A DNA stretch of 64,000 nt from Azolla caroliniana (GCA_043228905.1 JBHGNT010000005.1:20584001-20648000), one strand, 5' to 3'; shown: positions 30,905 to 58,507, numbered from the stretch's first letter. Notes: generated from the letters alone by a model not told the origin. Program-made: numbers and translations.

Positions 30905-30968
30905 TTCTAGAATGTTCTAGAATGTCCTAGAGCATTCTAGGTCTAGAACATTCTAGAACATTCTAGAA
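30905..30968. promoter_or_regulatory. Heat-shock-element-like array in U3 (also present in the 3' LTR)
   Basis: TTCTAGAATGTTCTAGAA...TCTAGAACATTCTAGAACATTCTAGAA, alternating nGAAn units just upstream of TATAAAT at 30994. Confidence 0.65.
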
Positions 30969-31164
30969 ATCTCTAAGCTATTCTATAGGAACCTATAAAT
31001 AAGCGCATACATGTATTCTCAAATCAATTCGAATCAACACCAGTCTTTAGCTCTCATTACATATCTTGTATCCATTCCCTTTCTTTCTCTATCTTATACA
31101 TCCATTCTTCTCTATCCTTCTTCCATCACTCTATCTTTTATCCTTGGTTCTGACAGTTTGATTC

Positions 31165-31204
<40 letters not shown>

Positions 31205-31229
31205 CCTCCTTTGTAACCATCCTGAAACC

Positions 31230-36048: not shown

Positions 36049-36857
36049 CCATTATGGCGTCACCCGGACTTGAACCTCGAACACATGACCATTATGGCGT
36101 CACCCGGACTTGAACCTCGAACCTTGTAATTCATACTTGAAAACCTCAACCATTAAGATAGCTTATTGTTATATGAAACAATAAAAGCTACTTCTTGTAT
36201 TACATTGATTATTGTAAAAACTCTAGATTATTCTAGAATGTTCTAGAATGTCCTAGAGCATTCTAGGTCTAGAACATTCAAGAACATTCTAGAAATCTCT
36301 AAGCTATTCTATAGGAACCTATAAATAAGCGCATACATGTATTCTCAAATCAATTCGAATCAACACCAGTCTTTAGCTCTCATTACATATCTTGTATCCA
36401 TTCTCTTTCTTTCTCTATCTTATACATCCATTCTTCTCTATCCTTCTTCCATCACTCTATCTTTTATCCTTGGTTCTGACAGCACCCGGTTTACGCACCG
36501 GTCCGGCCTAACCGATCAATCCCAACCGATCCGGTTCTCGGCTTGCACAACCGATCCAGCCAATGTTGAGCTTGTATCTCAACACTCTAGAGGGGAGTAA
36601 CACAATTTGGCACGCCTGGTTCAAACTGTGAGTACACTGCGAACAAGCAAAGGAGGAATATCCAGTCGTAGGAACAACACGGCACAACAGACCACGTGCA
36701 GAACAAGAAGAGAGTGTGGAAAAATCCGCACTCACTAAGCAACCTCTCCAGGATTGGAAGCCCAACAAATTGCGCTTCCTGATACAACATCAACCAACGA
36801 TAGTAGTTGAGAGGTCGAACACCCCGAAGACAACAACCCACTTCAGGGGGTACAAGG

Positions 36858-37519
36858 TGTTACATGCATGACCATATAATATCCCATAATAAGATTGTAC
36901 CATAGTATTCTATACACATGGACAAAGTGTGAGGGTTAAACGAGAGTGAAAAGAAGGGAATGATTACTTTTTATCCTTGGGATTGAGACAACCCATTAGG
37001 CCAAGTGTGAACTTGCTTGGGGGCCTTAGGTTTGGCTATAAATATGAGGCCTATGTTACCGGCATGACCATATAATATCCCGTGGTGAGAATTTACCGTA
37101 GTATTCTATACACGTGGATAAGTGTGAGGGTTAAACGAGAGTGTAAAGAAGGGGAGAATTACTTTTAATCCACGGGATAGAGACAACCCATTAGGCCAAG
37201 TGTGAACTCGCTTGGGGGCCTTGGGTCTCGCTATAAATATGAGGCCTAGCTACCCTCATTTCATCATCTCTTGACTACGTCGAGACACTGTTTCGTGGTG
37301 GGTCAACTCTTGTAGCGAGCGCGCCAACACTAGGTACGACTCGACACCACAACGGTGGTATGGGACGACGATCGAGGCTCGAATCCATCTCAATCCCTTC
37401 TCTCGGAGGTGGTCGGGTGGATCGACACCCTTCTTTCACTCTCCTTTCTTATTTCATATATATTATATCCTTATCATATGATCACATTAGATCATCACTC
37501 TAACAGTTGGTATCCGAGC
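36858..37519 (+). mobile_element. Partial LTR (36858-37053) followed directly by a full LTR of the same family (37054-37505) and a tRNA-iMet PBS
   Basis: Both copies start TGTTAC..GCATGACCATATAATATCCC. The first follows a purine-rich tract. The second ends CTAACA and is followed by TGGTATCCGAGC (37508-37519). Confidence 0.8.
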
Positions 37520-39473
37520 TTATGTTTCTAATGTTTCTTTTGTTGGTTTTTGTTGTCTTCTTGATGGATGATGATCAATCGACGTGCGGTCGACCTTGAT
37601 CTAGATAACGATCAACAAAGGAACTTCGGTAACTCTTTCTTCATTGGGTCTATTAGTGCCATGTTGTAAGTTACTAATGACACATGCCTCGAGAGCACTT
37701 TGAGATTGCCGAAGTTCGGACATTTGATGAGCGGTTGAACTAAGGAAATTTTGTATTTGTAAGAAATACGACTCAATGGAGATTAGCCCAAGAGGATTTC
37801 CTTGAGTTCCTTCCACTTGAGCGGATGACATCGGGTCATTATTATAAGCCATTGAATGATAATTTTTGGCAAAGAAATAGGATAAGGTCAGACAAATAGT
37901 CATAACATCATGTCGTGATGTAAACATATCATGGGCCAACATTAATCGATATCATGATCTCACGTCAATACCCCTCTAGACGTATGAGATGAGGTTTAAG
38001 ATCAGGTTACTATGGTAACACAAAGGTGTTTTAAAAACCATGGGGGTGACAAATGAATGTCTTTCCCTCATCTCTATATTGATTTTTTCTTGACGGCTCC
38101 CTGAGGCTCAACCATGTATGTTTGCGTCATGAATAGTTTATACACGAAAACAATGTTAACAATAAACTATGTTTTTGTGCCCACGTATGTGGTTTCGGCT
38201 CTTTAAGTCCTATTACGAGGACCCCGAAGTGCACTTAGACCTAAAGTCTAAACATGTACTATAGTCATATGTATCAACAATGGTGTATGGTCTTGATCAT
38301 ATTTGAGCTCGAGACCTCGAGAACAAATGCATTAAACACTTCGGCTAACCAAATAGGTTGCTCGTGTTGAATGTTTAATATTTTATGCGTATAAGCGAGG
38401 CATATGCCCATATATGTTTTCTTTAAAAGAAACATATATGTCAAGAGTCCTTATTTCCCTCTCATTTACCACAAACTATGTTGGTACGTTACCTAACCTC
38501 AAGTCTCATAATTGCGATGGCATACGCCAAAGTGCAACCTAATGGTCAAGCCAAATGAGCCCTCTTTTCGTAGTAGGCCCACATGGCCCATCACATGGTT
38601 ACGTTGTCGTAGTGTAGGTTGCACACTATGTGGAAATTATATTTTTGTCCCTCCGGATAGAGAATGGAGTGCTCGGTGAGAACCGGAAGAAAACGGCATA
38701 CCGGCAAGGAGGAAAACGGCATACCGGCAAGGAAGAAAACGGCATACCGGCAAGGAAGAGCCGGATAAAGAGACATAAATGTAAAAAAAAAAATAATAAA
38801 AAGGAAATACTCACTACTGCGCAGGGCATGATTTGAACTCTGCACCTCCACGTTGACAAACCCCAACCTTACCATTACATTAACTTATCTTAAGTGTTTT
38901 AAATATAGATTTAATAGGTATAAGACCTTTATTTATGCATACCTTTAAAAGGTAAATCGTGTATTTTTTTATATATGAAAAAAAGAAAAGAAAAGAAAAA
39001 CACGAGACACTAAAAAATAACTCATGCACATCTAGCGTGCATGAGCCCTATATTTAGGAAATAAAAAAAAGCATCACATGCACATTTAGTGGACATGAAC
39101 ACTTTTTGTAAAAAAAAAAGCATGAAGCCATGCTTAGCTCTTCCTTCCTTATATAAGGAGGAGAGAAATATGTATATGGTTGTTGATTTTTTTTGGATTA
39201 AGAATTAATCAATACAAAAATTATTCGTGGGATTCACGATTTATACATCTACTTCTCTCTTAACACCCTAAGTACCAATTAATATAGTATACTCGTGTGA
39301 TTCACGAGTTTCTTATCTTTCTCTTTGCTATTTACTCATAATTAATCTCTATCTCACGAACTTCTTTCTCCTAGTCCAAGACCTCTGTGGTTCCCACCCG
39401 ACTCACGCAACGATCCGGAGCCGAAAGGCACGACACAGTTGGTGAACCCGACGTGAAGACGGGTGGCAAGGAG

Positions 39474-41513
39474 ATGGAGGCTCAACAAGCTAACAATATG
39501 ATGGCGATGTTCGAACGGATGCTTCAAGAACAACGCACGATGTCGGAGATTTCGGCATCAGTAGAGCGGCTCATGCAACGCAACGGGCAATTTAATGGTA
39601 AGGATGTGTCGCGATATTTGCAGGACTACAAGGCGGAGATGCTCCGGTGCCGGGCTTCGGAAGGACTGCAAGTGACATCCTTTAACCGGGTGGCGACCGA
39701 CGGGCTTCAAGGGAGTATCCACGGGTTGCAACAACAAAATCCGACGTGGGAAGCATTCGAAGAGGCGTTAAAGACCACGTTTGCCATCGAGGACTCCTCC
39801 AAGGCAACGTGGAGGGGATTCGAGGATTGGGTGGAAACGTCAGGTAAGGGGCTGAAGGTCCTCGAAGTGTTTTCGACATTCGAAAGTCAGTTCGGGAGGT
39901 TGTCCGCGAGAGATCAAACTATTCTTGCACCGGACAAAGTCATCATGTTTTTGCGAGCTGTGGACGTCCGGGACCGGAAAGATCTCGGAGTGCTTCTTGA
40001 GGACACGACCACCGAAAGCGGCCTCACCGAAACATGGGAAAGCGTGCGGGATATCGTCGCGCGGTACACGAAGAGGGGGCAATGGCTTGCCAACGAAGAA
40101 AAGAGGGTTTCGGAACCGATTCCGAAACCGAGAACGGGACTGGAAGACCATCAACCGAGGGCTCGGGAGATTACGGCCGAGAAGGGAGTCGACGCGTCTA
40201 CGGTGGAGCAGCTGCTGAAGGAGATGGAGAATCTAAAGATCGCGATGGTGAAGAAGTCGGATGACCGCCCCACAAGCTCCAAATATACGGATCGACGGTG
40301 CATATGGTGCGATAGCGCCGAACACGATCGGAGGGATTGCGACGACCATAAGGAGGCGCTACGACGGGATCTCATCTACTACGAGGGAAACCGGATTCAT
40401 TCGATGGACTCTCGGAAGCCACTCCGACCGAACTTCCGGAAAGGCGGCATGAAGAAGGTGCTCGAGGAGGAGTTAGCGGCAAGAAGCAACTATGCGACAA
40501 CCGCGGGAATATGTGTCGGGGAGTCATCGGGAGCGAAGGCGTCTTTCTGGCCGGAGGTGCTAGGAAACACCGAGAAAACCGACTCCAACGATATCCGAAA
40601 CACCGCGGAAGGCGTCCGGGAAGCTACGGGATGGGAGTGCCCTGTCGACAAAAATAGCATATACGCCCTGTGTCAATTACATGAGGTGTATGTGGACGAG
40701 AAACGACGGCGCACGGAGGATGCGGCCGGACCATCGAAGATACCGGAAAGCTGGAACTCCGGAGGTAAGGGAAAAGAAAAGGCGACTCCGGCATTCAAGC
40801 TCGCCTCGAACATAGAACAACAAACCGACTTGAAAAGAGTGTTCGAGGAAAGAATCTTGGATAGCCGGGTAGATTTTTCGCTGCGGGAACTACTCGGAAT
40901 AGCGAAGAAGGAGTTTCACGATCTTCTCGTGGATCTCGTGAAAAGGAAGAGACAAAGTACGGAGGAAAATGCTCCAAGGGTGAATGCAAATACCGTTTCA
41001 ATGAACGACACCGAAGTGGAAGGCGAAATTCCGAACTCCCACTATACAAGGCCACACTGGGCACGTGCGACTACGGAGACTCCGGTCCGAATCGGCAGCA
41101 TCAAAGAACCCGTGCTAGCATTGATTGATCACGGATCGGAGATCAACTTGATGTCCAAGGAGTTCTACCGAAAGGGGAAGTGGCCTATAAACACCAACCA
41201 TGGATGGAAGATTCGGGCAGCCACGAAAACGACAAAAGACCTATTTGCAGCTTGTCCGGATGTGACGGTAAAGATCGGGGATGTCGAAATTGACCAAAAT
41301 TTCTTTGTGCAGGATGAGGTTTCACATTCTGTCATCCTCGGCCAACCCTTTATCACGGCTTCACGGATGGAGACGAAGGTGCTCGATAGTGGTGCGGCTT
41401 TTGCGCGAATTCGGAGCCAAAACGGAGGGAAATCCGTCCAATTCCTAACGGTGCCGGCAAATCACGAAAGGAACAAGAGGGAACTCTTGTCCCAAGTGAG
41501 AATGGATTTTTAA
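39474..41513 (+). CDS. Gag-protease polyprotein
   Basis: Uninterrupted ORF; first ATG after the PBS at 39474. CCHC CIWCDSAEHDRRDC; protease ALIDHGSEINLM...VILGQPF. Confidence 0.9.
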   Translation: MEAQQANNMMAMFERMLQEQRTMSEISASVERLMQRNGQFNGKDVSRYLQDYKAEMLRCRASEGLQVTSFNRVATDGLQGSIHGLQQQNPTWEAFEEALKTTFAIEDSSKATWRGFEDWVETSGKGLKVLEVFSTFESQFGRLSARDQTILAPDKVIMFLRAVDVRDRKDLGVLLEDTTTESGLTETWESVRDIVARYTKRGQWLANEEKRVSEPIPKPRTGLEDHQPRAREITAEKGVDASTVEQLLKEMENLKIAMVKKSDDRPTSSKYTDRRCIWCDSAEHDRRDCDDHKEALRRDLIYYEGNRIHSMDSRKPLRPNFRKGGMKKVLEEELAARSNYATTAGICVGESSGAKASFWPEVLGNTEKTDSNDIRNTAEGVREATGWECPVDKNSIYALCQLHEVYVDEKRRRTEDAAGPSKIPESWNSGGKGKEKATPAFKLASNIEQQTDLKRVFEERILDSRVDFSLRELLGIAKKEFHDLLVDLVKRKRQSTEENAPRVNANTVSMNDTEVEGEIPNSHYTRPHWARATTETPVRIGSIKEPVLALIDHGSEINLMSKEFYRKGKWPINTNHGWKIRAATKTTKDLFAACPDVTVKIGDVEIDQNFFVQDEVSHSVILGQPFITASRMETKVLDSGAAFARIRSQNGGKSVQFLTVPANHERNKRELLSQVRMDF

Positions 41514-44500
41514 AGCGGACTGTTGCGGAGTGGGGAAGTGATAGTCCGAGAAGCCCTGATACCCCACACAGGAAGAAAACTCTCGGAGCAAAACAAGTAC
41601 GAATCGGCCTGGATGGGGCATCTACGTACACGGCCGTAACCGGAGGAATGAAGAAACAATACCGACAAGTGGAGGATAAGTTACGGTCGGCATCAATAAT
41701 AAAAGAAGACGAAGAAATCGTGGGAGTGATCGAGGAAGTGTTCTATGGGAATACACTACAACGGCTTGAAGAGCTTGCGGAAGATAAAAGCCAAGGGAAC
41801 CGGGTAGTCCCGGTGGAATCGGTCGAGATGTACGAGATCGTTGCGAAAATGGGGCCGGATGCGCTCCGCAAAGAAGAAGCAATGGTAAGTACGAAATACA
41901 AGACCGTGGAGAAGAAGGTGAAACCGGCCGCGGGACCACTACCCGCCGATAGCGAACAAAAGAAGAAAGAAGTCTCGGGAGATCCGACACTTCGGAAGTC
42001 CGTGGATATCGGACATGCCTTCACAGATGAGACCCGGAAGAAACTTCGGATCGGTGGAGGTGGGTTCCTCTTACAAGAAGAAGAAAAACGGTTTCGAGAG
42101 ATGTTGGAGCAACATGGCAAAGCATTCGCGTTCACATCGAGGGAGATCGGATGCATTGATCCAAAGATAGTGGAGCCGATGGTGATTTTCACGATTGATC
42201 ATGTACCGTGGAACCTGAAGCCGATTCCGGTGCCACGGGCGCATATTCCGAAAGTCATCGACTTGCTCAAGGAGAAGGTGGCGATGGGGATTCTAGAGCC
42301 ATCAAGTGCTCCGTACTCAAATCGATGGTTTACGGTTCCGAAGAAGAATGGGTCACTCCGATTCATCCAAGACTTGCAACCGGTGAACAAGGTCACGATC
42401 CGGAACTCGGGAGTCGGTCCGATAGTGGACGAATTCGCGGAAGCTTTTGCCGGACGTGCGATATACTCCATCGGGGACCTATACTCGGGGTATGACCAAT
42501 TCCAACTAGCCGTGGAGAGCCGAGACATCACTACCATGCGGACACCGATAGGACTAGTTCGAATGTGCACACTACCACAAGGAGCGACAAACTCGGTTGC
42601 ACATATGATGAACGCGATGAACAAGGTGCTTCGAGATTGCATCCCGGAGATAACGATGCCGTTTCTAGATGACATTCCGATGAAAGGATGCGCGGTGGAA
42701 GAAAAAGATGAGACTATGGATGATCGGGGATGCCGAAAGTTCGTGGTCGACCATATTCATGATTGCGAGAAAGTGTTGCGAAAGCTAGAAGATGTGCACC
42801 TAACACTTTCCGGGGAGAAATCGGCATTCGGGCAAGAAGAAATATTGGTGGTCGGACATCTATGTGGACCCTACGGCCGAAGACCGTCACCAACAAAGGT
42901 CGATGCGATTCAAGCTATGAAGGAAGTATGTGAGTCAACATCGGAAGTCCGAAGGTTTCTGGGTGCGTGTGCATTCTATCACATATGGATTCCACACTAT
43001 GCACATATAGCGGACCCGCTCTATCACTTGTTGCGGAAAGGTAAGAAATTCGAGTGGAAACCGGAACACACTAAAGCCATGAGGAAGCTCAAGAAGACAC
43101 TATGGAGGGCGGAATCACTTAAGAAGCCAAGCTACGAGCGGCCAATCATAGTAACGGTTGATACAAGTCCAACCGGTATCGGGTGGGTCATCAATCAAGC
43201 CGACTCGGATGGTTCGCGGTATCCGATCCGATTTGGAGCAAAGGTCCTCAACGAAAGGCAACGCGGATATGCACAAGTCAAAAGAGAATTGTGGGGAGTC
43301 GTGTCGGCGATAAAATCGGATCGGGATTATTTGATCGGAGCTGAAGTGGTGATCGAGACGGATTGTCTTCCGATACTCGGGATGATGCGGTGTTGTACGA
43401 TACCGGATGTGGCTATGCTAAGGTGGATTGCATATGTCAAGTCACTTAATCCGGAGGTTCGACACATCTCGGGGAAGGACAACGCGGTAGCGGACATGTT
43501 ATCGAGGGCGCGGTTTGAAGACGACATAACCGAATCAGATAATGAAGAAGTTTCCGAAGACTACTTCACGTCAGAACACATATGCCGAGTGAACGTGATC
43601 CGAGAATTCCGGGAAGAAGAATACGAGGGGGAAACCTTGATGATCGGAAAGATGCTACAAGAGGTCGAGGATTCAACCAATGATAAAGAAAGGAGAGCCG
43701 AGATCCGAAGGAAGAAGAGGCAAGTCCAAAAGTTCTTCTTGGAAAACGGTTTAATATGGAGGACGCCGAAAAGACCGGATGGGATACCACTTCGAGTAGT
43801 CGGGACGAAAGAGCAACGAAACCGGATAATGTCCAAGTTCCACGAATCCGATTGGGCTGGACATCGAGGAACATGGGCAACTTTTGTGAAAATCAAGCAA
43901 AGATATTGGTGGAAGAACATGTATAAAGATGTCGCGGAGTTCACAGAAAGCTGCGAGAAATGTCAAGTCTACTCCGGGGTCCGACACCGAGATGAGCTGC
44001 ATCCGACATTCTCACCGACAATCAACTTCAAGTGGATGGTCGACATTGTAGCTATGCCGATCGGGATTGGAAAAAAGAAATACTTGGTGTTAGCTCGAGA
44101 AGATCTCACAAACCAAGTTGAAGGTCGAGCGCTTCGGAGGAAAACGTGTGCCGCGGTGTGCCAATTTCTTTTGGAAGAAGTGTTTTGTAGGTACGGCTGC
44201 GTAGGACAAGTGATTGCGGACCGGGGAGAACTCGACTCGGACAAAGCTAGGGGATTCTTCGCCAAACATGGAGTTCGGTTAACGTTGACAACGGCCTACA
44301 ATCCGGAGGCCAACGGGAAGATCGAACGAGGACATAGTCCGATCGTGAAAGCACTTGCGAAGGCATGCGACGGAAGGGTGAAGGATTGGCCACAAATGCT
44401 TCCGTATGCACTATGGGCGGATCGGACGACGCATAGCTCCGTGACCTGTTACATGCCGGCAGAACTCATGACCGGACAAGCACCGGTAATGCCAACGGAA

Positions 44501-45115
44501 ACCGCAATCGCGACATGGACAATACTACCGTGGAAGGAAGAGATGAGTCGGGAAGAACTACTAGCGGTCCGGATACGACAACTGGAGGGAAGACCGAAAG
44601 ATGTAGCGGAAGCGTCACGCCGACAACAAGAAGCACGGTTCCGGAACAAAAGCCGGTTCGACACAAAGCACCGACTACGACCGAGGAGGATTGAAGAAGG
44701 AGATTGGGTGATCGTCTATGATAGTAGCTTGGACCATCAACATACAACGATGCGGAAATTCGCGAAAAGGTGGTTCGGGCCGTACGAGGTTCGGAAGGTC
44801 TTCGACAACGGGACGTACCGACTGTCCGAGTTGGATGGAACAATACTACGAGTGCCTATAGCCGGGAAGCGGGTGAAGATTTTCAAGAAGCGGACCGACG
44901 ACAAACCTTATGTGATCCAAGTCGAGGCCGACAACGAGGAGCAATCGGACGAAGACCACAATGATGCGGGAAGCGAAGAAAGTGGATTACAACTCATAGT
45001 CGACATAAGGGGAGAATCGGAGGAAGCTTCGGATGAAGACGGATACGAAGAATCAAGAACTTCGGCACATACCGGAGGATGTGCGGGTTTGGAGGGGGCG
45101 AGTGTCGTAGTGTAG
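41510..45115 (+). CDS. Pol (RT-RNase H-integrase), probably expressed by -1 frameshift
   Basis: Frame is open from 41510 to 45115. RT DLYSGY/FLDD, RH VDTS...DNAVADMLSR, IN H-H-CxxC, ADRGE, NGKIER, GPY. Confidence 0.92.
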   Translation, partial: LKRTVAEWGSDSPRSPDTPHRKKTLGAKQVRIGLDGASTYTAVTGGMKKQYRQVEDKLRSASIIKEDEEIVGVIEEVFYGNTLQRLEELAEDKSQGNRVVPVESVEMYEIVAKMGPDALRKEEAMVSTKYKTVEKKVKPAAGPLPADSEQKKKEVSGDPTLRKSVDIGHAFTDETRKKLRIGGGGFLLQEEEKRFREMLEQHGKAFAFTSREIGCIDPKIVEPMVIFTIDHVPWNLKPIPVPRAHIPKVIDLLKEKVAMGILEPSSAPYSNRWFTVPKKNGSLRFIQDLQPVNKVTIRNSGVGPIVDEFAEAFAGRAIYSIGDLYSGYDQFQLAVESRDITTMRTPIGLVRMCTLPQGATNSVAHMMNAMNKVLRDCIPEITMPFLDDIPMKGCAVEEKDETMDDRGCRKFVVDHIHDCEKVLRKLEDVHLTLSGEKSAFGQEEILVVGHLCGPYGRRPSPTKVDAIQAMKEVCESTSEVRRFLGACAFYHIWIPHYAHIADPLYHLLRKGKKFEWKPEHTKAMRKLKKTLWRAESLKKPSYERPIIVTVDTSPTGIGWVINQADSDGSRYPIRFGAKVLNERQRGYAQVKRELWGVVSAIKSDRDYLIGAEVVIETDCLPILGMMRCCTIPDVAMLRWIAYVKSLNPEVRHISGKDNAVADMLSRARFEDDITESDNEEVSEDYFTSEHICRVNVIREFREEEYEGETLMIGKMLQEVEDSTNDKERRAEIRRKKRQVQKFFLENGLIWRTPKRPDGIPLRVVGTKEQRNRIMSKFHESDWAGHRGTWATFVKIKQRYWWKNMYKDVAEFTESCEKCQVYSGVRHRDELHPTFSPTINFKWMVDIVAMPIGIGKKKYLVLAREDLTNQVEGRALRRKTCAAVCQFLLEEVFCRYGCVGQVIADRGELDSDKARGFFAKHGVRLTLTTAYNPEANGKIERGHSPIVKALAKACDGRVKDWPQMLPYALWADRTTHSSVTCYMPAELMTGQAPVMPTETAIATWTILPWKEEMSREELLAVRIRQLEGRPKDVAEASRRQQEARFRNKSRFDTKHRLRPRRIEEGDWVIVYDSSLDHQHTTMRKFAKRWFGPYEVRKVFDNGTYRLSELDGTILRVPIAGKRVKIFKKRTDDKPYVIQVEADNEEQSDEDHNDAGSEESGLQLIVDIRGESEEASDEDGYEESRTSAHTGGCAGLEGASVVV

Positions 45116-46272
45116 GTTGCACACTATGTGGAAATTATATTTTTGTCCCTCCGGATAGAGAATGGAGTGCTCGGTGAGAACCGGAAGAAAATGGCATACC
45201 GGCAAGGAGGAAAACGGCATACCGGCAAGGAAGAAAACGGCATACCGGCAAGGAAGAGCCGGATAAAGAGACATAAATGTAAAAAAAATAATAATAAAAA
45301 GGAAATACTCACTACTGCGCAGGGCATGATTCGAACTCTACACCTCCACGTTGACAAACCCCAACCTTACCATTACATTAACTTATCTTAAGTGTTTTAA
45401 ATATAGATTTAATAGGTATAAGACCTTTATTTATGCATACCTTTAAAAGGTAAATCGTGTATTTTTTTATATATGAAAAAAAGAAAAGAAAAGAAAAACA
45501 CGAGACACTAAAAAATAACTCATGCACATCTAGCGTGCATGAGCCCTATATTTAGGAAATAAAAAAAAGCATCACATGCACATTTAGTGGACATGAACAC
45601 TTTTTGTAAAAAAAAAAGCATGAAGCCATGCTTAGCTCTTCCTTCCTTATATAAGGAGGAGAGAAATATGTATATGGTTGTTGATTTTTTTTGGATTAAG
45701 AATTAATCAATACAAAAATTATTCGTGGGATTCACGATTTATACATCTACTTCTCTCTTAACACCCTAAGTACCAATTAATATAGTATACTCGTGTGATT
45801 CACGAGTTTCTTATCTTTCTCTTTGCTATTTACTCATAATTAATCTCTATCTCACGAACTTCTTTCTCCTAGTCCAAGACCTCTGTGGTTCCCACCCGAC
45901 TCACGCAACGATCCGGAGCCGAAAGGCACGACAACGTCAGTACGAATGCCTTCGTTCGTAAGAATGCTCTCATGGTGGCATCGTATCCATGTAATGAGGG
46001 AGGGGTCGAAGCATGCTACGGTGTACCAACTTTTGGCCAAAAATTTAGTACTAAATCGAAGAAGAAAAGAAACATTAAAAATTGTAAATAAATTTCAAAA
46101 AACCAAAAACAAATTCATTACGTCACACTCGAATGTTCAAAGATATTATACGTCACACTCGAATGTCCCTAGGCCATATTTAATGCATTAAGTGTTGCCC
46201 CAGTCTCCTAGGTAGAGTTGTACGAAAGCACACCTGGAGAAGGTTTCCATTGTGACAGGTGGTCAGTGTCAA

Positions 46273-46327
46273 TCTCTCTCTCTCTGGTATTGGTAGTCGA
46301 ACGTGTCAGTTGGTATGTCTCTCTCTC

Positions 46328-46371
<44 letters not shown>

Positions 46372-46460
46372 GTCTCGAAGTTGTCAGACAGACACCTTCG
46401 AAGGTCTGTTTCTCTCTGTCTCTCACTCACTCTCTGTCTCTCTGTCTGTCTGTCTGTCTG

Positions 46461-46516
<56 letters not shown>

Positions 46517-46710
46517 GTCTCGAAGTTGTCAGACAGACACCGTCGAGGGTCTGTTTCTCTTTGTCTCTCACTCACTCTCTGTCTCTCTCTCTCTCTCTTC
46601 TACCTCGAAGTTGTCAGACAGACACCTTCGAAGGTCTGTTTCTCTCTGTCTCTCACTCCACCTTCGAAGGTCTCTTTCTTTCTTTCTTTCTGTTTCTCTC
46701 TCTCACTCCA
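46273..46710 (+). repeat. (CT)n microsatellites interleaved with three copies of TCGAAGTTGTCAGACAGACACCTTCGAAGGTCTGTTT
   Basis: Directly visible. Lies upstream of a likely 5'-UTR intron (CAG|GTA ~46962 to TAG| 47630) of the accessory gene. Confidence 0.85.
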
Positions 46711-47634
46711 CCTTCGATTCTCTGTTTCCCCGTTGTTGTTCTTGTGTTCCCCTCTGTGCCAGGTTCGATCTCTGAACTCTGTATACGCAGCAGCCTCTGA
46801 AGTTTGTCTCCTCTGCAGCAGCCTCTGAAGTTTGCTCGTTTGTCTCCTCTGCAGCAGCCTCTGACGTTTTGCTCGTTTGTCATCCTGAAGTTTTCTCGTT
46901 TGTCTCCCAAGGTATCGAAATCAAGACGGTGTGGTACCTCTGCAAGTTTAGCGACCTCCAGGTATTCTCTGTGTTGCATGCCCAACTGGTATGTATTCTT
47001 TTTCTGAATGTTTCCTCTCTGTCTGTTTTTTATTTGTATGTGTATGACCATTTGTAGGTTTTGATTATTCATAGTCTATGTGTTGCATGCCCAACTGGTA
47101 TGTTTTTGTTTTCTCTGTGTTTCTCTGTGTTTCTTTTAAAAATGTATCACAATATTTTGTTCGATGTGGTTGTGTGTTAGACATGTTTGTACATGTGGCC
47201 AAAATGGAGTTGGCTATGATGAGTTGCTATGTTTTTGTTTTGTTAATGTTTCATGTCCATCTGTTTTTATTTTGTGTGAGTTTGGCATGGATGAGTTTTT
47301 TTCCTACTATTTTGGGTTTTTGTATGTTGGACATGGCTTGTACATGCGATGTGATGGAGTTGGTTATGATGATTTACAAAGTTTTCGTTTTCTTTGACTT
47401 TCCTATTCGTCTGTTTTTATTTTCTGTGTGTTTGACATGGATGAGTTTTATTTTCTGTGTGTTTGACTATTTAGGGTTATTGTGTGTTGATTTGCAATGT
47501 GATGATTTGCTATGTGGTTTGTACATGTGGTTTGTACATGCAATGTGATGATTTGCTATGTGTTGATGGTAATTGCGATGTGTTGATGGTAATTGATTTG
47601 CTATGTGTTGATGAGAATTGTGTTGACTAGGAAA

Positions 47635-50600
47635 ATGACGAGAAGGACACCCATAAAGAAGACATTGATGAAAGAGAAAGTGAAGACACCAGTGAAGGAA
47701 GGAAGAAGGACACCCATGAAAGAAAGCAAGAAGACACCCACAAGAGAAAGGGTGATGAATTCATCAACACAGAGAAAGAAGACCTGGCAGTACCAGTCCA
47801 TCAGTCGAGACACACCTCTTGGATGGAATTATTTCCTTCGGGCACGACCTGACGTTTACCCAGAGTTGAGAGAGTGGTTGTTAAAAACCTGGGGGTCAGC
47901 ACATCCCGACACAAGGCGAGGATTCCACATGAGTGGTTTGAAGAGGGAATACATCAATTTATTGAAGACGAGATACGAACATGTTTATGATACAAATCAA
48001 ATCACTAACAATGAGGTGGGTACTGTTTTTGCACGTGCTTTTGCATGTGAAGTTCAAGGTGGCATCGACGTTAATTGGGAAGATTTTAATCGGCACCGGT
48101 CAGAACATTACAAAGGGTCCTCCAGTACCAACACTGGCTTGAAGTCATCTGGAACCTCTCATGTGGATATTCCAGCTACAACACCTGTCCAACAAGTTCT
48201 AGAGGCAAAGGTACGGGCCACAATGACTGAAAAACATGAACAGATGATGGCTGGTTGCATAGCTTCTATGAGCTCAAGAATACAAGCACTACTTGCTGAT
48301 TTGGAAGCAGTTAAATCAGCTGAGATACAGGCAGAAAAGAAATTTTCTTCAATAAAGACTACATATGAATGGATTGCATCGACAATCCAAAATTCAGAAA
48401 GTGAGGTGTTGAAAGAGGAGTTGAAGAAAGAGCTGAACAATATGGGTGCTCAATTACATTCACAGATGACAGACCTTGATACTTGTAGGAATGCACATGA
48501 AGAAATAGATAATAAGTTGTCAGCCTTAAAGTTGCATTCTGAGAACCTTGCATGCTTGATGCAGGATTTAAAACATAATGGTTTTGATACTTTGTGTCCA
48601 TCTGTAATTGAGCACCCAAGTGGTATAGAAAGTACCATTACTAGTATAGCTATATCACGGTATTAGCTTTAAAAGTTATTTATTTCTACTTTTATGGTAT
48701 AAATAAGTGAGCAGCTAATATATTATAACTTGTGTTTGCAATCTTCCAGGTGTATATTTTGTGGCCTCGGATTCAAGCTGGAGGCTATGGATGTTGTGAT
48801 TACACCATGCTTGCACACATATCATGTGCTATGTGCTAAGTATCATTTTGAGAAAGAGAATACATGTATGGACTGTAAAACTACAATTGCGGCTGAGTGG
48901 TACTATGCTTGGGGTTTAAAAGTACACCCGTACGGTATGTGGCTCTACTATTCTATTGTTTGTATTATATAATGTCAATTATCATTTGGACTAGAACTAG
49001 TGTATGCCACAATTCATACTTAAAATTTAGGAGAACAATGGATTAGTATTAGTGTATCTCTAACAACAATGGGATAGTATTGGCAGTACTCTTAATATAT
49101 AATTGGTATGTGTAGTTAGTTGAAGGGATATTTTCCAGAATTAGTAGTACTAAAAGGGAACCAGGTACAACATCGTCCAATCTATATTGTAACTTGCCTA
49201 GTATTAGTTTAGTAAACACTATACTTATAGTACACTGTTGACTGTTAGTATTGTTTGTGTAACTTGGAAATTAGTACTAGTAATGTAATTTGGGAACAAG
49301 GTGTCACTTAAATTGCTGAATAATAGTACAGTTTCTGTAATTTGGAAATGAGGTGTGTGAAACACATATCACGTTTAGTACTAATACTGTTCAAGTTCAA
49401 TACTGTTGGTGTAATTAGTACAAGTTATGTAACTAGGTGTGTAGAACACATATCACGTTTAGTATTACTTGTGTGCAAAATACCAATCTACATTTGTTGG
49501 ATTAGTACTTAGTAATTACTACATTGTTCATGATTAGTACTAGTTTTGTACTTTGTGAACTAAGTTTCTAGTACATTGCTCATGATTAGTAATAGTTTTG
49601 TAACTAAGTGAGTAGTACATTGCTCATGATTAGTACTAGTTTTGTAATTTGGGAACTGAGTAGTACTTTGTTCCCTATTAGTACTAGATTTGTACCTTAT
49701 TTGTGTAAATTGGTAACTAAGTGAGTAGTATATTGTGCATGATTAGTACTATTTGTGTAATTTGGGAACTAAGTGAGCAGTACATTGTTCGGGATTAGTA
49801 CTAGTTCAGTGATTTAGGAAATAAGTGAGTAGTACATTGTTCAAGATTAGTACTACTTATAAATTTGACAAAGTCAGTGGTGCATTTTTCGGGATTAGTA
49901 CTTGTGCATGATTAGTACTACTTGTGTATATTGTGCATGATTAGTACTATTTGTGTAATTTGCGAACTAAGTGAGCAGTACATTGTTCCTTATAAGTACT
50001 AGTCCACTAATTTAGGAAACAAGTGAGTAGTACATTGTTCATGATTAGTACAGTGGTACATTGTTCGGGATTAGTACTCCTTGTGTAACATGGTAACTAA
50101 GTGAGTAGTATATTCTGCATGATTAGTACTACTTGTGTATATTGTGCATGATTAGTACTACTTGTGTAAATTGGGAACTAAGTGAGCAGTACATTGTTCC
50201 TTATTAGTACTAGTTCAGTAAATTAGGAACTATGTGAGGAGTACATTGTGACCTACATTGTATATTTTAGATGATGGTACTAACGTTCAACGTTTTTTTG
50301 TTTCTTGCAATGAATGTCGTAGTGTCAAGCAACTCCACGCCAGGGAAGGTCATGGAACTACCAGCCCCTGTGCCTAAACCCTCAATATCTGCCGCACATT
50401 CCAAGGTTCAGGGACCATCATTACCAATAACCTATGATTTTTATGATGAGGATGAATGTATGAGAAGGGCCATTGGAGCAGTGGAACATATGCTTCTACA
50501 AACAAATTCCCCAAGCTCCGGTCAACAATTTGAAATAGAGCCCACTAAGAAGAGAAATGATGTGTCTTTAGAAATAGAGCCCAGTAAGAAGAGAAATGCT

Positions 50601-52136
50601 GCAAGAATGTTGTATGGAAACGGCAAGAAAAGGAAAGTTGAATGCAATGGTGAGTCATATAAGTTCTCACCTGTCAGGAGCGTTGTCAACCTAATCCATT
50701 GTCTAATACCATGTACTTGTGTTGCTAGCTGATGACGAAATGATATTTGGTGACGGAGATACGAGTTCAAAACCTGATCGTGAAGACGAATTTATCACAC
50801 TCCCAGGTAAACGTCAAAAGCCAGACTTTGAAAACAATGATTTAGCTCATAACAACCCTATTATATTGTTGCTTTTGGTGCATTCTATAGATCATAGCAA
50901 CACTGTTGAGCACCTAGATGTTGTGGAGAAGATGACCGAGCCCACCACTTGCAATGGGGTATCTACGGCTGTACAGTATGACCATGTAACATTAGGTAAA
51001 AATGTGGCCCAAAACCCTATGTTCATTGTTTGCAAACTTTTGAGTATGTGAGTTGATACTAATATTGTTTGGAATCCCATTAATTAGGTTTACAAGAGCA
51101 GCCTGAATCGGGAACTTCATGGAGCACAAGTGCAGAGTCAGATTCTGGGATTAACCTTTCCACGGAGGCAGATTCTGGAAGCACATCTTCCACACATGAG
51201 GATTGTGAGAAAAACGAAGCATTCATATGTGAAGAGCAGCTGGCATGTCCAAACAACAGTATGTCTAAAGAAGCCCATGAGGAGTGTGGAAAGAATATGG
51301 CAAGTACTGAAGAGAAGATTGAAGCCCATGAAGAGTCTGGAAAGAATATGGCAAGTACTGAAGAGAAGATTGAAGCCTATGAAGACTCTGGAAAGAATAT
51401 GGCAAGTACTGAAGAGAAGATTGAAGCTCATGAAGAGTGTGGAAAGAATATGGCAAGTACTGAAGAGAAGACTGAAGCCCATGAAGAGTGTGGAAAGAAT
51501 ATGGCAAGTACTGAAGAGCAGACTGATTGTACTGATAATGTGTTAGTAGTGTCTACTGATAATGTGCTAGTACTGTCTAAAGATTCTGATGAGGAGTATG
51601 GAAAGAACATTGCTAGTAATGAAGAGGAGCTTGATTGTACTGAGAATGCCCAAATGGATCGTGGAAAGAACATCGCTTTCCCTGAAGATAAGCCTGATTG
51701 TACAGAATCACATGAGGAGCCTGATTGTACAGATAAGCCTGATTGTACACGTAGTCTTAAGAATGAGTTGACAGCCACCGTACAAGAGGAGTTGACCATG
51801 ACTACTACCATAGTCCACATACAGGAGTCTAATAAGAACGAGTGTACAGGCATCATTGATGATGATAGGGGAATAAAGATGAGTGATAATTTGACTATCG
51901 ACAGCACCTTTGTGGATTTGTGTACAAGCATTGCAGTTGCAGAAAACACAGTTGCTCTCTCAAGCTTGCCACCAGTACAAGGTGCCCGCGCATCCACGCC
52001 TATCTCTGATGCCTCTGATGATGAAGTGCCACTTAGTCAGCTCATACCTAAAGGCTTTAAGATAAAGAAGAATGTAAAATCTGGCACCAACAACAAGCGC
52101 ATTACAAGATCGGCCAAGTTACCCTCTAGTGCCTGA
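47635..52136 (+). CDS. Transposon accessory protein: coiled coil + RING-H2 finger + acidic repeats, 6 exons, ~922 aa
   Basis: GT-AG exons 47635-48659, 48750-48934, 50323-50649, 50729-50806, 50891-50995, 51088-52136 join in frame (2769 nt, no stops). RING CIFC...CLHTYHVLC...CMDC. Confidence 0.75.
49490..50250. repeat. Degenerate ~55-60 bp TAGTAC-rich tandem array in intron 2 of the accessory gene
   Basis: Recurring ATTAGTACTA...GGGAACTAAGTGAGTAGTACATTGTTCATG. Confidence 0.8.
51270..51524 (+). repeat. Five 51-bp coding repeats (EAHEECGKNMASTEEKI)
   Basis: Visible in both DNA and translation. Confidence 0.9.
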
Positions 52137-53056
52137 TTTTCTTCCGATTGTACTTGAACTTTAGCTGTTAGTGATGTCTGAAATACCTCTATTTGGATAC
52201 CAAAATACTGTTTCAATTGCCAATGTCAAAATTCCACTTCTGTATTTTGTAGAAACAATGGGAATATACTTTTTGATCTAAGTATTCCTCTTTTTACAAC
52301 GTTTTGTTTCTTTTTTGAGATCATCTCCTGATGAGTTGCCAAGTCTTTGAGTCTGTTGTAGATAAAATGCTTGAAATTCTTCTTAGCTTGCTAGGAAAAT
52401 TTAGGTTTTCAGGTGTTAATGATGATAAACAGAAAATATCGGGTGTTATTGAAGTATAGACTGTTTCATCAATCCCATTTGGAGGGTAACCAGAATTTGT
52501 GCAAATTGTTGAAGCAATGTGGGCCATATTTTGATGATATCATCCCAATGGATGAACTATCCACTAACAGTAGTAAGGAAACACTCCCCTTTTTGAGCTA
52601 TCACAAATTATTGTTTCAGGAGTTGGATTATTTTGTTAAGGAATTTGAGGCTTCATTGCACATTTGCTTCTTGAAGAATGAACTTACAGTATAAAATCTT
52701 ACAATATTAAAGTCATAATTTGAATTCAACTTACAGATTTATGTGCCTACAGAGGACACACCAACGGCAATGAATCTAGACTTTATCAAGAAGATATACA
52801 ATATTTTTACTCATTTTACCATGGCTCTGCAAAACTTCTATGCTCAAATAACATCAGGAAACATGAGCAATATCGGCAATGAAGAAATCCAAGTCTTGTT
52901 GACAACAACTAATATATTATGAAAGATAAGTACAAGTGGTTGACAGGCATAAACACTTTAGAAGAAAGATGAAATATATCAATTCATTTGTCAATCATCA
53001 AAATTAATAGTGAACTCCAAGTATTGAGAGGGTACAATGTATTGAGAGGGTGACTT

Positions 53057-56000
53057 TCAAGCATTAAATAGAGAGACCTCCCCTAATATGTGCTCATGAA
53101 CCTCTTGGGGGACCTTGTAGACAGTGTTGTATCCCTTAACCTTGTGCTTTGCTTGAGTCATATTGAATTTGATCGCAAGAATGGCATCAACGTAGATTAT
53201 TGCGATGGGTGCTTCTTTTAGTAATGCATATGTGTTCTTGCACTGCGGCAACTTTGCATAATAGTTTCCATACACGACAGACTCACCAACGTTGAAATTG
53301 TTGCCCCAGCCATCCCTCACCACTTCTTTCAATAATGTCTTTCCTTGCTTGCACACCACAATGTAGTAGTCTTCTAAATCTTCATTCTGAGGAGATTTGA
53401 GCACTGCAAAATGATCTCCAACTTCCAATAAAACTGCCAAGTCTTGATTTTGGTTGTAGTATACAATATCGTTTGAATGCACATCATCTTCAATATCATC
53501 TTGTCGTTCAGGCTCAAGCTTCTGCAACTTCCAGGGCTCCACGATTGATAGGTTGATGCATTTATCCCAAGCTTCATCTATACACATGGAACAAAAGCAT
53601 GATAAACTACGTAGTAACAATTGTGTTGTGTCCTTGCGGCTAAACCCTAACACACAATGGGTGCTGCGTGTGCCTTTCACGGTTTTACAACCATATGATT
53701 TAGTTCTATCGACCTCATCAGCGCGAACTTCAACAAACAATCTGTTCTTACCATCATTTGACATCTTCCATGTTAGCCACTGCACAACATCATGTGCATT
53801 TTGTAGCTTAGCACCATTATTATCCAACTGCTCACTTGTAAGGGCACGTTTGATCACAGCCCCCGCGCCATCATGCTCTCCTTTTCCATGTCCAGACCCG
53901 AAGTAATTCCATTGCATACGAATGTTGAATAAGGAGAAATACCTGCTTTTGTAACTCAGGTTTCCAACAAAATTAGTACTATGTTGTCAATAGAGAGTAC
54001 TACACTTCCATTAATACTGGCATCCATTTAATACTAACTTAGTATGGATATAACTTAGTACTAACTTAGTCTGGTTTATACTATGAGTACAAGATGAGTA
54101 CTTTACATCCCCTTGTATAGTACAATGTGTCTATGGAGAACCCTTCACATGGATTAAAACATAATTAGTACAATTCTCTTAAGGACGGACAATACTATAA
54201 GTACAAGATGAGTACTTTACATCCTTTTGTAAACACAACATAGTACAGAAGCAACACACAACATAGTACAATGTGTCTATGGAGAACCCTTCACATTGAT
54301 TAGTCGATACTTAGTACAATTCTTAGTACTAACTTAGTCTGGTTTATACTATGAGTACAAGATGAGTACTTAACATCCTCTTGTATAGTACAATGTGTCT
54401 ATGGAGAACCCTTCACATGGATTAAAACATAATTAGTACAATTCTCTTAAGGACGGACAATACTATAAGTACAAGATGAGTACTTTACATCCTTTTGTAA
54501 ACACAACATAGTACAGAACCAACACACAACATACTACAATGTGTCTATGGAGAACCCTTCACATTGATTAATCGATACTTAGTATGGATATAACTTAGTA
54601 CTAACTTAGTATGGTTTATACTATGAGTAGAAGATGAGTACTTTACATCCTCTTGTATAGTACAATGTGTCTATGGAGAACCCTTCACATGGATTAAAAC
54701 ATACTTAGTACAATGCTCTTAAGGACGGACAATACTATGAGTACAAGATGAGTACTTTACATCCTCCTGTAAACACAACATAGTACAGATACAACACACA
54801 ACATAGTACAATGTGTCTATGGAGAACCCTTCACATGGATTAAAACATACTTAGTACAATGCTCTTAAGGACGGACAATACTATGAGTACAAGATGAGTA
54901 CTTTACATCCTCCTGTAAACACAACATAGTACAGATACAACACACAACATAGTACAATGTGTCTATGGAGAACCCTTCACATGGATTAAAACATACTTAG
55001 TACAATGCTCTTAAGGACGGACAATACTATGAGTACAAGATGAGTACTTTACATCCTCCTGTAAACACAACATAGTACAGATACAACACACAACATAGTA
55101 CAATGTGTCTATGGAGAACCCTTCACATGGATTAAAACATAGTACAAACAAAATTAGTATGCATGCATCCATTCACAAGTGCAAGATTCGAATAGTTACA
55201 AACATAATTAGTATGCATCCATGTGAATAGTACTGTTTGTTAATAATTACAAACATAATTAGTATGCATGCACTAACACAAGAATTACTTCCTTACACAT
55301 TGCATGGTAAGTACTAAACATATGGATTAAAAATTACCTGGCGATAAAGTAGAACGATCGTGCCGCCTTAAACTGCGAGGCAGCACCATCAGACCAAACC
55401 CAATGACGGTTAAAGGTTACCCCTAGAGAAAATAAATCTGCATGGTGAAGCTTAAAACAATGTTGAACAAATAGTGTATCATGCTTTTTATCATCTGAAA
55501 TGTAAAATATTGATTTCTTATGTAACTCACCGTCTTGCCTCCAATAGCAAATATGCACAAGTATTGTACATTGATCATTGTACCAATGCATTGATTGAAC
55601 CTCATTCTGAACTTTAAATGTATAGTTTTCTGCAAAGTCAATAACAGATACGATGACACCCGTTGGTAAGTTATTAATACATTCCTTGAATTGTGAATTT
55701 TGCCAATAACTCCGGAAGTTATGTGGAATGAACTCCCCAAGTTGTTTCTTAAATTCTGAGACAAGGGTAGCAGCACATGTCTCCTTATATACTTCCTTGA
55801 TACGCTTAGTTACAACTCCCTTGCCAATATTTTCAGTCACATACTCTAAATATTTCCATTTCACGATATGACTGTTTCCCAAATCAAGCTCCTGCATACA
55901 AAATAATGGTAGCGGACAAACCTTACATGTTCTTAATAGACATGTACGACGATGCCACTCACATGATGGTTCTTTTTCACAAACACAAGACCTCCATAGC

Positions 56001-56985
56001 TCAGAAACAGATGCATAAGTCATGTTTCGTGCATTACACCTATTATCCTCCCCATTTGGTCTACATATCTCACAAGTGCAGACACATAATTCCCCGTGTA
56101 TACCCTTACAATCAGTACGCATTGCATTCACGGCTAGCCTTAACATGTCCATCTTCACATGGTACACACAACAACATGTATTCCTCTCATTTAATTTTCT
56201 AACATAAAATGGTTTCAAACCTTGGAACTTGCGGAATCCAACAGTCAAGCTTGGATGTTGATCTTTAAAGTTCATGTACAATTCAGCCTACATCAACCAA
56301 TATATATAGCAAACATTAATATACAGTTGGTCAAAACACAAAGTTATGGAATGTGAAATGATATAAAAAAATGGAATACCTCTGTCATCTCCAAGAAGTG
56401 TCTAGGGTGAATCTGGTACTTACCCTGACTTATTCGTTGTCTACACACGTCCTTCTTATTTGGTGAGACACGCGTATTTTTGGCCCAAAATGAATCCACT
56501 TTCTCAATAATCTCTTGAGATAAGGCATCACATCGTCGTCTACGTCCCAACCCCATCCACTTGAATTTGTTTGAGTGTATATTTTGGCGATGTTTCCTCA
56601 AGTTCCTTCTTTGAATACCCAGGGCTAAGGCAACTTTAGTATCACTATATTTTTTTCCTCTCGCACCGTTCACAACCATGTGTAGGGCTGCCCTCTTTGC
56701 AGCAAGTTTGTCTAAGCTCTCTACACCTTTCACTAAGTCTAGGGATGACTTCATAGACTCTACAATCTCTTCTGAAACACATTGGTCCCTAAATTTTATT
56801 CTCTCCATGTCTTCATTCAAACTTTGATGGTGTAACACTCTACAGATAATATCCCTACGATCCTCTTCACTAAATCTCTTTGTTATTTCTACCAAATAAC
56901 GGACTATGTGAAGAACCACTCGTCTCTTAGTCCTTTCAGATATGCATGAGTTACTTGACAACTCACTCTCGTTAGGAACCCCCAT
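53057..56985 (-). CDS. Sola2-like DDD transposase, 3 exons, ~813 aa (start uncertain)
   Basis: Exons 56985-56380, 56287-55338 and 53942-53057 with GT-AG introns, in frame. Motifs TCCCVYH, DFAENY..EVQSMHW, ISDDKKHD, SDGAASQFK, WNYFGSGHGKGEHDGAGAVIKR, SCFCSMC. Confidence 0.85.
54035..55145. repeat. Tandem array (8 anchors, 146 and 122-126 bp periods) in transposase intron 2
   Basis: GTGTCTATGGAGAACCC recurs at 54127, 54273, 54395, 54541, 54667, 54813, 54959 and 55105. Confidence 0.92.
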
Positions 56986-57064
56986 TCGGTCACTAGATTT
57001 ATCCGCAAAAATTAAGTGGCTTGCAAAAGTAGTTAATGTTATATAGACTCAACCAAGAAAACAC

Positions 57065-57660
57065 AATCAAATGTTTTTAAATGTGGCCTGCAAAGTGAAA
57101 GATATTTCGTTTCAAACATTAGAATTACATATCAAATATGACAATTGTCAGTTCTAAAATTTTTGTACTGAAATATGAAGAAATGTAACATTTTAGTACT
57201 GAAAATAAAAAAAACGGTTTGGTGAAAGGAACCTCCAATGGTGGACGGAGCGTTGGATATGCCGCCTCGATTTGGTGGAAGGAACCTCCAATGCCGCCTC
57301 GATTTGGTGGAAAAAGCCACAAATCACCACGACACCAAATCAAATGTTTTTAAATGTGGCCTGCAAAGTGAAAGATATTTCGTTTCAAACATTAGAATTA
57401 CATATCAAATATGACAATTGTCAGTTCTAAAATTTTTGTACTGAAATATGAAGAAATGTAACATTTTAGTACTGAAAATAAAAAAAACGGATGGAAGGAA
57501 CCTCGAATGGATGGAGGGGGCGTTGGATATGCCGCCTCGATTTGGTGGAAGGAACCTCCAATGGTGGACGGAGCGTTGGATATGCCACCTCGATTTGGCG
57601 GAAGGAACCTCCAATGCCGCCTCGATTTGGTGGAAAAAGCCACAAATCACCACGACACCA
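57065..57660. repeat. ~270-320 bp tandem duplication upstream of the transposase, with internal GCCGCCTCGATTTGGTGGA units
   Basis: AATCAAATGTTTTTAAATGTGGCCTGC occurs at ~57065 and ~57338. Confidence 0.85.
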
Positions 57661-58507
57661 ACTTCAATGGATGGATGTAAGAAAGTCGTTGTCGAAGAAG
57701 TCACTATTGGCTGCTACCAACAGTCTCTGTACCTCGACCTAAACCCTAACAAAAACAGAAACCCTAAAAAAATCAGAAATCCTCAACTTAAACGCTCAAA
57801 ACAGACATGGATGTCTGAGATTTAGATTGGAGGAAATCAGAAACTGAACATGGATCTGTGATGAAAAGCTCAGAGGGATAGAGGAAGAGGAGTATGAGGG
57901 GAACCGCCAAAACGACGTGAGGGGAAGCGCCAAAATCGACGTGAGGGGAAAATAGCCCCCAAAATGGAATGAACATCTCCTCACCTGTTCCCCCCACTCC
58001 TTCTACAATAAATGACACTTGTACTACAGTCACCCCACTCTCCAAAATCGATTTTCTTTTTCTCTGATTTTTTTTTTTTGAATTATTCATACTAACAGTA
58101 CTAAAAGTACTGACAATTTTTGTGGCCAAAAACAGTACTTTTCTGGTACACCGTAGCGTGCTTCTACCCGGAGGGATGTTGGATATGTGTCATAGGCGCA
58201 ACCTCACATGGAGTGGGTCAAGCCCAATGTTCTAAACATCATTGTGGCTATGATCGTTTCGTTACGTAACAAAATCGACGTGACCAACGGGGATGTCAAC
58301 AAAACAAATTGTTGAAAAAAGGATGGTGACTACGTCATTCTCACAAAAATGTGAGGACGGCCACCAAGATCCTTTCCCCGAATAACTAATATCCACATGT
58401 ATATTTATCACATATATATGATCAAATAAATATACACATGACCACATATGGATATATTAAAAAAATCGTAATATCAAATAACCAACAATGATGTAATCGA
58501 GATACGT

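Follow-up and report, generated by a model that had tools for sequence, protein, structure and literature searches.

The region analyzed here, hereafter the window, is a 64,000-nucleotide stretch of the genome of Azolla caroliniana (GCA_043228905.1 JBHGNT010000005.1:20584001-20648000). It contains an element of about 12 kb (46003-58169) that carries two convergent spliced genes, a transposase gene on the minus strand and, on the plus strand, a second gene encoding a RING-H2 protein, referred to below as the accessory gene. The original prediction, made from the sequence alone, had described an intact two-gene Sola2-like transposon at this position, and its terminal repeats, target site and both stop-free genes were all recovered. 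The element is almost certainly a complete Sola2-type cut-and-paste transposon with two open genes that has been mobile recently. Seventeen AUX/IAA matches in the genome agree with the proposed land-plant host.

Element boundaries and genomic copies

The element is bounded by terminal inverted repeats (TIRs) of 26 bp, which match at 24 of 26 positions and both begin GGG, and the target-site duplication (TSD) GGAG lies at both ends; direct inspection thus bears out the predicted termini (Table 1). The original prediction had proposed looking for the uninterrupted target site in other copies of the repeat. Three paralogous flank repeats were aligned, and two of them (L201 and L202) show a single GGAG and no insertion, while the alignment of the third (L203) diverges before reaching the insertion junction.

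Searches of the host genome (523 Mb, contigs C1-C22) with each end or with transposase exon 2 gave 14-16 matches apiece at 99-100% identity among the best 40 of 288-489. We examined 31 copies, comprising the window element and 30 further genomic copies. Both ends, for which a genome-wide search had been proposed, were located in 24 of the 31, and a 4-bp TSD flanks every one of these 24, so the element is not a chance arrangement; in the remaining seven, one end was not found within the stretch retrieved. The single left-end locus that departs from the common boundary, L026, lacks the exact core searched. The TSDs have no fixed sequence, are 72% AT and conform to AWWT in 3 of 24 cases.

Fifteen copies are full length (11.9-12.4 kb), and both reading frames are open in all of them. 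Compared in pairs, they show a mean of 5.8 differences over 9012 gap-free, non-repeat sites (0.064%), mostly private changes, with C>T or G>A accounting for 25 of 44 of the latter. Plant substitution rates lie near 1e-8 per site per year, and read against this rate the mean difference would place the age of the 15-copy family at roughly tens of thousands of years, a figure that assembly polishing could bias. These near-identical open copies support recent movement, as the suggestion of a still mobile element had implied. Older layers are also present: in subfamily B the transposase is 96-98% identical, in sister family C it is 74-84% identical, and the layout is the same in both.

Two further loci hold incomplete copies. 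An internally deleted copy of 8.4 kb (L093, G000:C19:13789946-13798339) has both TIRs, an AGTA TSD and half of its transposase missing, making it a non-autonomous derivative. At G000:C6:21283000-21297250 (L089, L090), a young-subfamily copy matches over the first 4.95 kb only and then stops, being either truncated or interrupted.

The transposase and its classification

The three transposase exons, separated by GT..AG introns, splice to 813 amino acids (aa) with no internal stop, and the joined translation confirms the predicted DDD transposase, with D419, D502 and D543 as the catalytic triad. The protein agrees motif by motif with the published Sola2 alignment (PMC3627910 Additional file 10), as had been proposed; the comparison was made by eye, and the ordered agreement runs from the N-terminal motifs through the GTR motif. 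Shared elements include DFxENY, QxxHW, SDDxxHD, SDGAxxQ(F/Y)K, W.(F/Y)FxxxHGKxxxDG and GTR (PMC3627910), preceded by the upstream motifs RVSPNKKD, LKP, NTCCCVYH and CxxCxxC. Seven cysteines are invariant among 29 transposase homologs. The TSD length in all 24 two-ended copies is that of Sola2, and the 26-bp TIR falls inside the published range of 11-1124 bp. Sola2 termini begin 5'-GRG, which the GGG at both ends fits.

No Pfam family matched any transposase exon, and the Pfam library searched contains no Sola2 model. This is in line with expectation, since Sola transposases are described as lacking a Pfam family (PMC5751038). A structure model of exon 2 (predicted local distance difference test score, pLDDT, 76.8) gave PIWI, RNase H, Hermes and Transib as the top Foldseek rows, all weak and none at E<=0.001.

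Named homologs come from Ceratodon, Calypogeia and Klebsormidium. In a catalytic-core tree of 104 rows, the window transposase lies with these three in a 46-row clade (100/99), and a bivalve protein falls outside it. The tree, whose rows are search hits and mostly unnamed, suggests that the window transposase belongs to an old streptophyte lineage. Placement in Sola1 or another superfamily with 4-bp TSDs draws some support from the lack of curated Sola1/2/3 references in the tree and from the labeling of GGGT-ended moss elements as Sola2, Sola1 or both in PMC12973397, but is very improbable in view of the in-order match, by eye, to the Sola2 alignment.

The transposase C terminus (window 53060-53400, minus strand) is predicted to form a small β-rich domain that is kept in the moss and algal homologs P0028 and P0016. 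This domain extends past the published Sola2 alignment and has no Pfam match.

A conserved accessory gene

The five accessory exons splice to 950 aa without a stop, confirming the predicted convergent gene, and alternative acceptors of intron 2 would give 943 or 936 aa. The RING-H2 finger retains eight of eight zinc ligands in C3H2C3 order and matches PF13639 at E=4.5e-5, under the curated cut-off. The helical N-domain has no Pfam match, either in the window exons or in relatives. Its structure model (pLDDT 84.8) had no PDB match, with no Foldseek hit at E<=0.001 and a best Z of 3.1; neither a new fold nor any function follows from this. The only lead came from an Atlas query with the N-domain of a relative, L113, which returned neighboring clusters at 0.88-0.89 in which 10% and 17% of members carry PF20167 or PF03078; both are Athila-type additional open reading frame domains. 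Atlas gave no usable match for the window's own accessory exon. A search for longer homologs of accessory exon 1 found none, a three-sequence profile of this exon gave 20 matches that are partly look-alikes of the seeds, and the L113 N-domain as query had no match in the host genome.

The ratio of nonsynonymous to synonymous substitution rates (dN/dS) stays under 1 in all accessory segments that have changed enough to be assessed. For the N-domain, comparison with subfamily B gives 0.08-0.14 and comparison with sister family C gives 0.44-0.52; the values are 0.24-0.28 for the coiled coil, 0.23-0.28 for the RING and 0.29-0.54 for exon 3, and the tail diverges fast. Rows from partial or frameshifted alignments (C16_13.88 and C15_3.0, exon 3; C1_17.3, exon 2) were left out. 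Transposase ratios are mostly 0.10-0.38. At the level of sequence divergence, purifying selection is thus shown to act on both genes, and the second gene is very probably functional.

Relatives were collected from 80 metagenome loci, representing 57 distinct groups; in 16 of these groups the DNA extends 4 kb or more beyond the transposase on its downstream side. A RING and/or N-domain lies on the opposite strand downstream of the transposase, tail to tail, in 12 of these 16 groups; five of the 12 seeded the profiles used, and eight were matched already by the window protein alone. The transposases of relatives carrying the accessory gene are 35-42% identical to that of the window, or 35-47% with all comparisons counted, and in L113 the N-domain, coiled coil, RING and acidic tail all follow one another as in the window. 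Because it is shared by relatives with transposases so diverged, the accessory gene is, judged from these comparisons, an old part of the lineage and not a passenger. Capture of a host RING gene, in the manner of Pack-MULEs (Mutator-like elements, MULEs), would accord with the abundance of RING-H2 genes in plants and with the fast divergence of the tail; this explanation is already largely refuted and highly improbable, given accessory dN/dS ratios well below 1, the orientation kept beside such distant transposases, and the finding that, out of at least 150 N-domain matches, the 16 that are exact or nearly so all coincide with element copies.

At L126:7029-8732 and L167:3686-5302 (minus strand), a single long frame of the convergent gene covers both N-domain and coiled coil, and the DNA available at those loci contains no RING match. 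At L175, L177 and L179, two Sola2-type transposase genes lie in opposite orientation, ∼6.4 kb apart in one locus. An unbiased TIR-plus-TSD search of the 80 loci gave no convincing complete element.

Palindrome arrays in introns and ends

The palindrome AGTACT, usually within TAGTACTA, occurs 47 times in the 12.2-kb element versus 3 times in the 51.8 kb of flank. Accessory intron 2 holds 20 sites and transposase intron 2 holds 15, with six more in the tail exon and six in the arms, such that 35 of the 47 occupy the two large introns, at least 2.8 kb from the nearer element end. Twenty independent contexts account for the 47 sites, and tandem unit lengths vary (52, 146 and 51 bp). The accessory-intron and transposase-intron arrays have only the motif in common. 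In sister family C both introns still contain AGTACT arrays, although by blastn against the window its accessory intron 2 is unalignable and its transposase intron 2 gives only 22-25-bp matches. Like the accessory gene, the motif appears to be kept by selection. In distant relatives the arrays consist of other words and lie mostly in transposase intron 1, and L109 and L112 each repeat their own word in two separate regions. Nucleosome-length spacing was considered as a rule for the arrays and is unsupported, the units being 52 and 146 bp and different-looking in family C.

Transcripts and splicing

Three poly(A) runs contain 55, 23 and 77 reads (155 in total), all 90-99% alike, on opposite strands over the two genes; these reads come from related copies. 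RNA-seq had been proposed for the junctions. In contigs of run X1, the sequences flanking both transposase introns and accessory intron 4 (50996-51087) are joined; that X1 is RNA is a guess. Four reads of run X8 join a sister-family exon 1 end at 48749, just before accessory exon 2.

On the strand opposite the accessory gene, a canonical intron is joined in contigs of X2, X3 and X6 (Table 1), which makes antisense transcription of the locus likely. The transcript containing this intron may arise by read-through of the transposase unit and may give rise to double-stranded RNA. One X1 contig, with a short side of only 20 letters, defines an in-frame cryptic intron in transposase exon 2 whose splicing would remove the SDDxxHD segment of the catalytic core. 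A P-element-like repressor isoform arising from this intron was set aside, as there is one contig and the acceptor is missing in sister family C. Two joints in X6 (55119/55337 and 51163/55098) were likewise set aside; they come from one contig and involve a 22-mer occurring 8 times in the intron array.

Table 1. Features of the Sola2-type element, in window coordinates
Feature	Position	Strand	Remarks
Left TSD copy, GGAG	45999..46002	+	Empty site in L201, L202
Left TIR, 26 bp, GGG start	46003..46028	+	Boundary same in 29/30 left-end loci
Subterminal AGTACT palindrome, left end	46047..46052		
CT-microsatellite and 85/145-bp repeat block	46318..46723	+	Upstream of accessory gene
Accessory exon 1: basic N terminus, helical N-domain (about aa 55-160), coiled coil	47635..48659	+	Start inferred; 47611 alternative
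Accessory exon 2: RING-H2 finger, C-x2-C-x15-C-x-H-x2-H-x2-C-x10-C-x2-C	48750..48934	+	
Accessory intron 2: ∼52-bp tandem array, 20 AGTACT	48935..50322	+	Acceptor uncertain, 50322/50343/50364
Accessory exon 3	50323..50649	+	
Canonical GT..AG intron antisense to accessory gene	50545..50670	-	Contigs of X2, X3, X6; two studies
Accessory exon 4	50729..50995	+	
Accessory exon 5: acidic low-complexity tail, five 17-aa repeats, 6 AGTACT, basic C terminus	51088..52136	+	
Transposase exon 3: GHGKGEHDG (D543), GTR motif, cysteine cluster, C-terminal domain	53057..53942	-	
Transposase intron 2: 146/268-bp tandem array, 15 AGTACT	53943..55337	-	Not in distant relatives
Transposase exon 2: Cys-rich region, DFAENY (D419), SDDxxHD, SDG (D502)	55338..56287	-	
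In-frame 108-nt cryptic intron in transposase exon 2, between first two catalytic aspartates	55423..55530	-	One X1 contig
Transposase intron 1	56288..56379	-	Position common to distant relatives
Transposase exon 1	56380..56985	-	Start codon inferred
Right arm: duplicated blocks, 5 AGTACT (three <=75 bp from end)	56986..58143		
Right TIR	58144..58169	-	
Right TSD copy, GGAG	58170..58173	+	

Neighboring sequences

A Gypsy-type long terminal repeat (LTR) retrotransposon (38605-45402) lies ∼600 bp to the left of the Sola2 element. It has 300-nt terminal repeats that are 99% identical and open frames of 712 and 1241 aa, encoding reverse transcriptase, RNase H and integrase. A chromodomain Gypsy element (30753-36378), also with 99% identical terminal repeats, has one in-frame stop between frames of 709 and 520 aa. 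Long inverted repeats at 23988-24378 and 36858-37443, 88-94% complementary and ∼12.7 kb apart, enclose retrotransposon sequence and are either nested or inverted LTRs or the ends of a TIR element. Two plus-strand frames of 454 and 248 aa (18138-20730) have no Pfam match at E<=0.001.

Proposed mechanism and alternatives

From these features we tentatively propose a model for the element as a whole. The DDD transposase would excise and reinsert the element by a 4-nt staggered cut, as is general for DDE/D enzymes. The accessory protein would dimerize through its coiled coil, its N-domain reading the TAGTACTA palindrome at introns and ends; its RING-H2 finger may be a ubiquitin ligase whose targets are chromatin or silencing proteins, and the acidic tail may serve as an activation-like region. 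Host silencing of the element family would thereby be countered and the element kept switched on. The low dN/dS ratios, the tail-to-tail layout, the enrichment of the motif and its retention across unalignable introns are consistent with this mechanism, which as a whole is possible and the one we favor. A wider form of it, in which seed-free-plant Sola2 elements carry an old, independently evolved and sequence-addressed anti-silencing module that pairs a DNA-binding domain of undescribed fold with a RING ligase on family-specific palindrome arrays and would ubiquitinate chromatin or silencing factors at the element encoding it, in a family that is mobile to this day, is unlikely.

Several observations weigh against binding of the arrays by the accessory protein in an active, silencing-resistant family. 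Expression of the young subfamily lacks raw-read support, as none of the 155 raw reads is at least 99% alike. The accessory gene is not seen in 4 of the 16 relative groups; L113, L167 and L143 have the gene and no strong array, and L103 has an unrelated 12-bp arm repeat. Pfam searches of all window exons and relatives found neither of the VANC domains, DUF1985 and DUF287, in the accessory N-domain. Three further points concern where the motif lies and how it evolves. A family's own word occurs within 100 bp of the element end in 5 of 5 termini tested, compared with 4 of 30 mismatched pairs and a single-terminus chance of 0.02-0.12; the motif partly echoes the inner TIR, which resembles the array word in L119 and L109; and families A and C keep the same motif though their N-domains have diverged more (dN about 0.3) than their transposases (about 0.1).

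These last three points favor the main rival, in which the protein that recognizes the palindrome is the transposase, acting at ends and introns to bring about synapsis and self-activation, and the RING protein is a transposition cofactor or a ligase tuning transposase level. The constancy of the motif between families would then track the slower-evolving protein. However, the accessory proteins of En/Spm and Harbinger elements read subterminal motifs too, so a motif near the ends does not decide the binder. In Arabidopsis, a transposase that has no accessory gene binds motifs in its own TIRs and switches on cognate copies (bioRxiv 10.64898/2026.08.24.746577), which gives this alternative a precedent; binding to introns is not reported in the accessible part of that preprint, whereas 35 of the 47 sites here are intronic and far from either end. 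We regard the transposase as a serious contender, nearly as good a candidate for the binder as the accessory protein.

It is improbable that the arrays arose by neutral expansion of tandem repeats and are not bound by any protein, the accessory gene being functional and unrelated to them. Tandem amplification inflates any word, and the reduction of 47 sites to 20 contexts, the varying unit lengths, the different arm repeat of L103 and the array-free relatives would all suit such an origin. Neutral expansion does not readily account for one word being central to non-homologous arrays, both within the element and in a sister family whose introns cannot be aligned, nor for the repetition of their own words in two separate regions by L109 and L112.

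Should the accessory protein read the arrays, the element would extend counter-silencing beyond Mutator and CACTA elements, and by way of a ubiquitin ligase. Related families with different motifs form a natural swap series for specificity. We know of no biochemically studied Sola2 member, and a first transposition assay for Sola2 could readily draw on the 15 intact near-identical copies; the family is also a candidate tagging tool for seed-free plants.

Comparison with known systems

PIF/Harbinger and En/Spm elements likewise have two genes, one of them for the accessory DNA-binding protein that reads subterminal motifs. They differ from the window element in their 3-bp TSDs, their unrelated transposases and an accessory protein of Myb/SANT or TnpA type. 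Tail-to-tail Harbinger genes are mentioned in PMC12477816. The Ectocarpus element Sola1-1_Ec32 described there is also a large Sola whose accessory gene lies opposite in strand to the transposase and is proposed to act on the element that carries it; it is a Sola1 of 21.5 kb encoding ParB and a methyltransferase, in contrast to the N-domain, coiled coil and RING found here (PMC12477816).

The suggestion that the window element may represent an undescribed family stands in part. Large plant Sola2 elements are already in print, and a land-plant Sola2 as such is not new because reports exist from Ceratodon and cypress. Plant Sola elements are reviewed as rare and known from Physcomitrella (PMC10741241, PMC9033089), many SOLA elements are recorded in Azolla in the fern genome paper (PMC6786969), and Sola2 is the most abundant DNA-transposon superfamily of the cypress preprint. 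Nothing decisive comes from PMC4455052, PMC3985635, PMC11728184 and bioRxiv 2021.09.26.461848. Four active plant Sola clusters (4006-4009), from moss and fern, are tabulated in PMC12973397, where the representative sequences of rows 4008/4009 appear swapped relative to their TIRs. Ceratodon cluster_4006 (PMC12973397 Table S2), of about 10.9 kb, resembles the window element in its Sola2 domain, 26-bp TIR (GGGT), 4-bp TSD and recent activity. The moss clusters have 2-3 copies, unlike the 15 found here, and the size filter of that study ended at 12,000 bp, a length exceeded by 13 of these 15.

What appears to be new is the conserved RING accessory gene together with the family-specific palindrome arrays, neither of which was found in print. 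No published description of a RING accessory gene in Sola2 was found, and Repbase, Dfam, Bao et al. 2009 or supplements could hold one; in the main text of PMC12973397, "RING" is absent and accessory proteins are discussed for MULEs, and its domain table S6 might list such a gene. The element shares with described Sola2 families the 4-bp TSD, short TIRs and a DDD transposase with upstream Cys-rich motifs (PMC3627910), and differs from them in its spliced RING accessory gene and intronic palindrome arrays. The second genes described for Sola2 in PMC3627910 encode Fanzor nucleases, and amoebozoan Sola2 TSDs are AWWT, whereas those here are mildly AT-rich.

The VANDAL elements of Arabidopsis offer a parallel in layout, being DNA transposons whose second gene product, VANC, binds short family-specific motifs arrayed as tandem repeats in introns and ends and counters silencing (PMC5735166). 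VANC proteins also carry tandem peptide repeats in their variable part (PMC5735166), comparable to the 17-aa repeats of the accessory tail. In contrast, VANDALs are Mutator-like and VANC contains DUF1985/DUF287, whereas the Azolla protein has neither domain and has a RING instead, and its element, known from sequence, repeats a palindromic motif.

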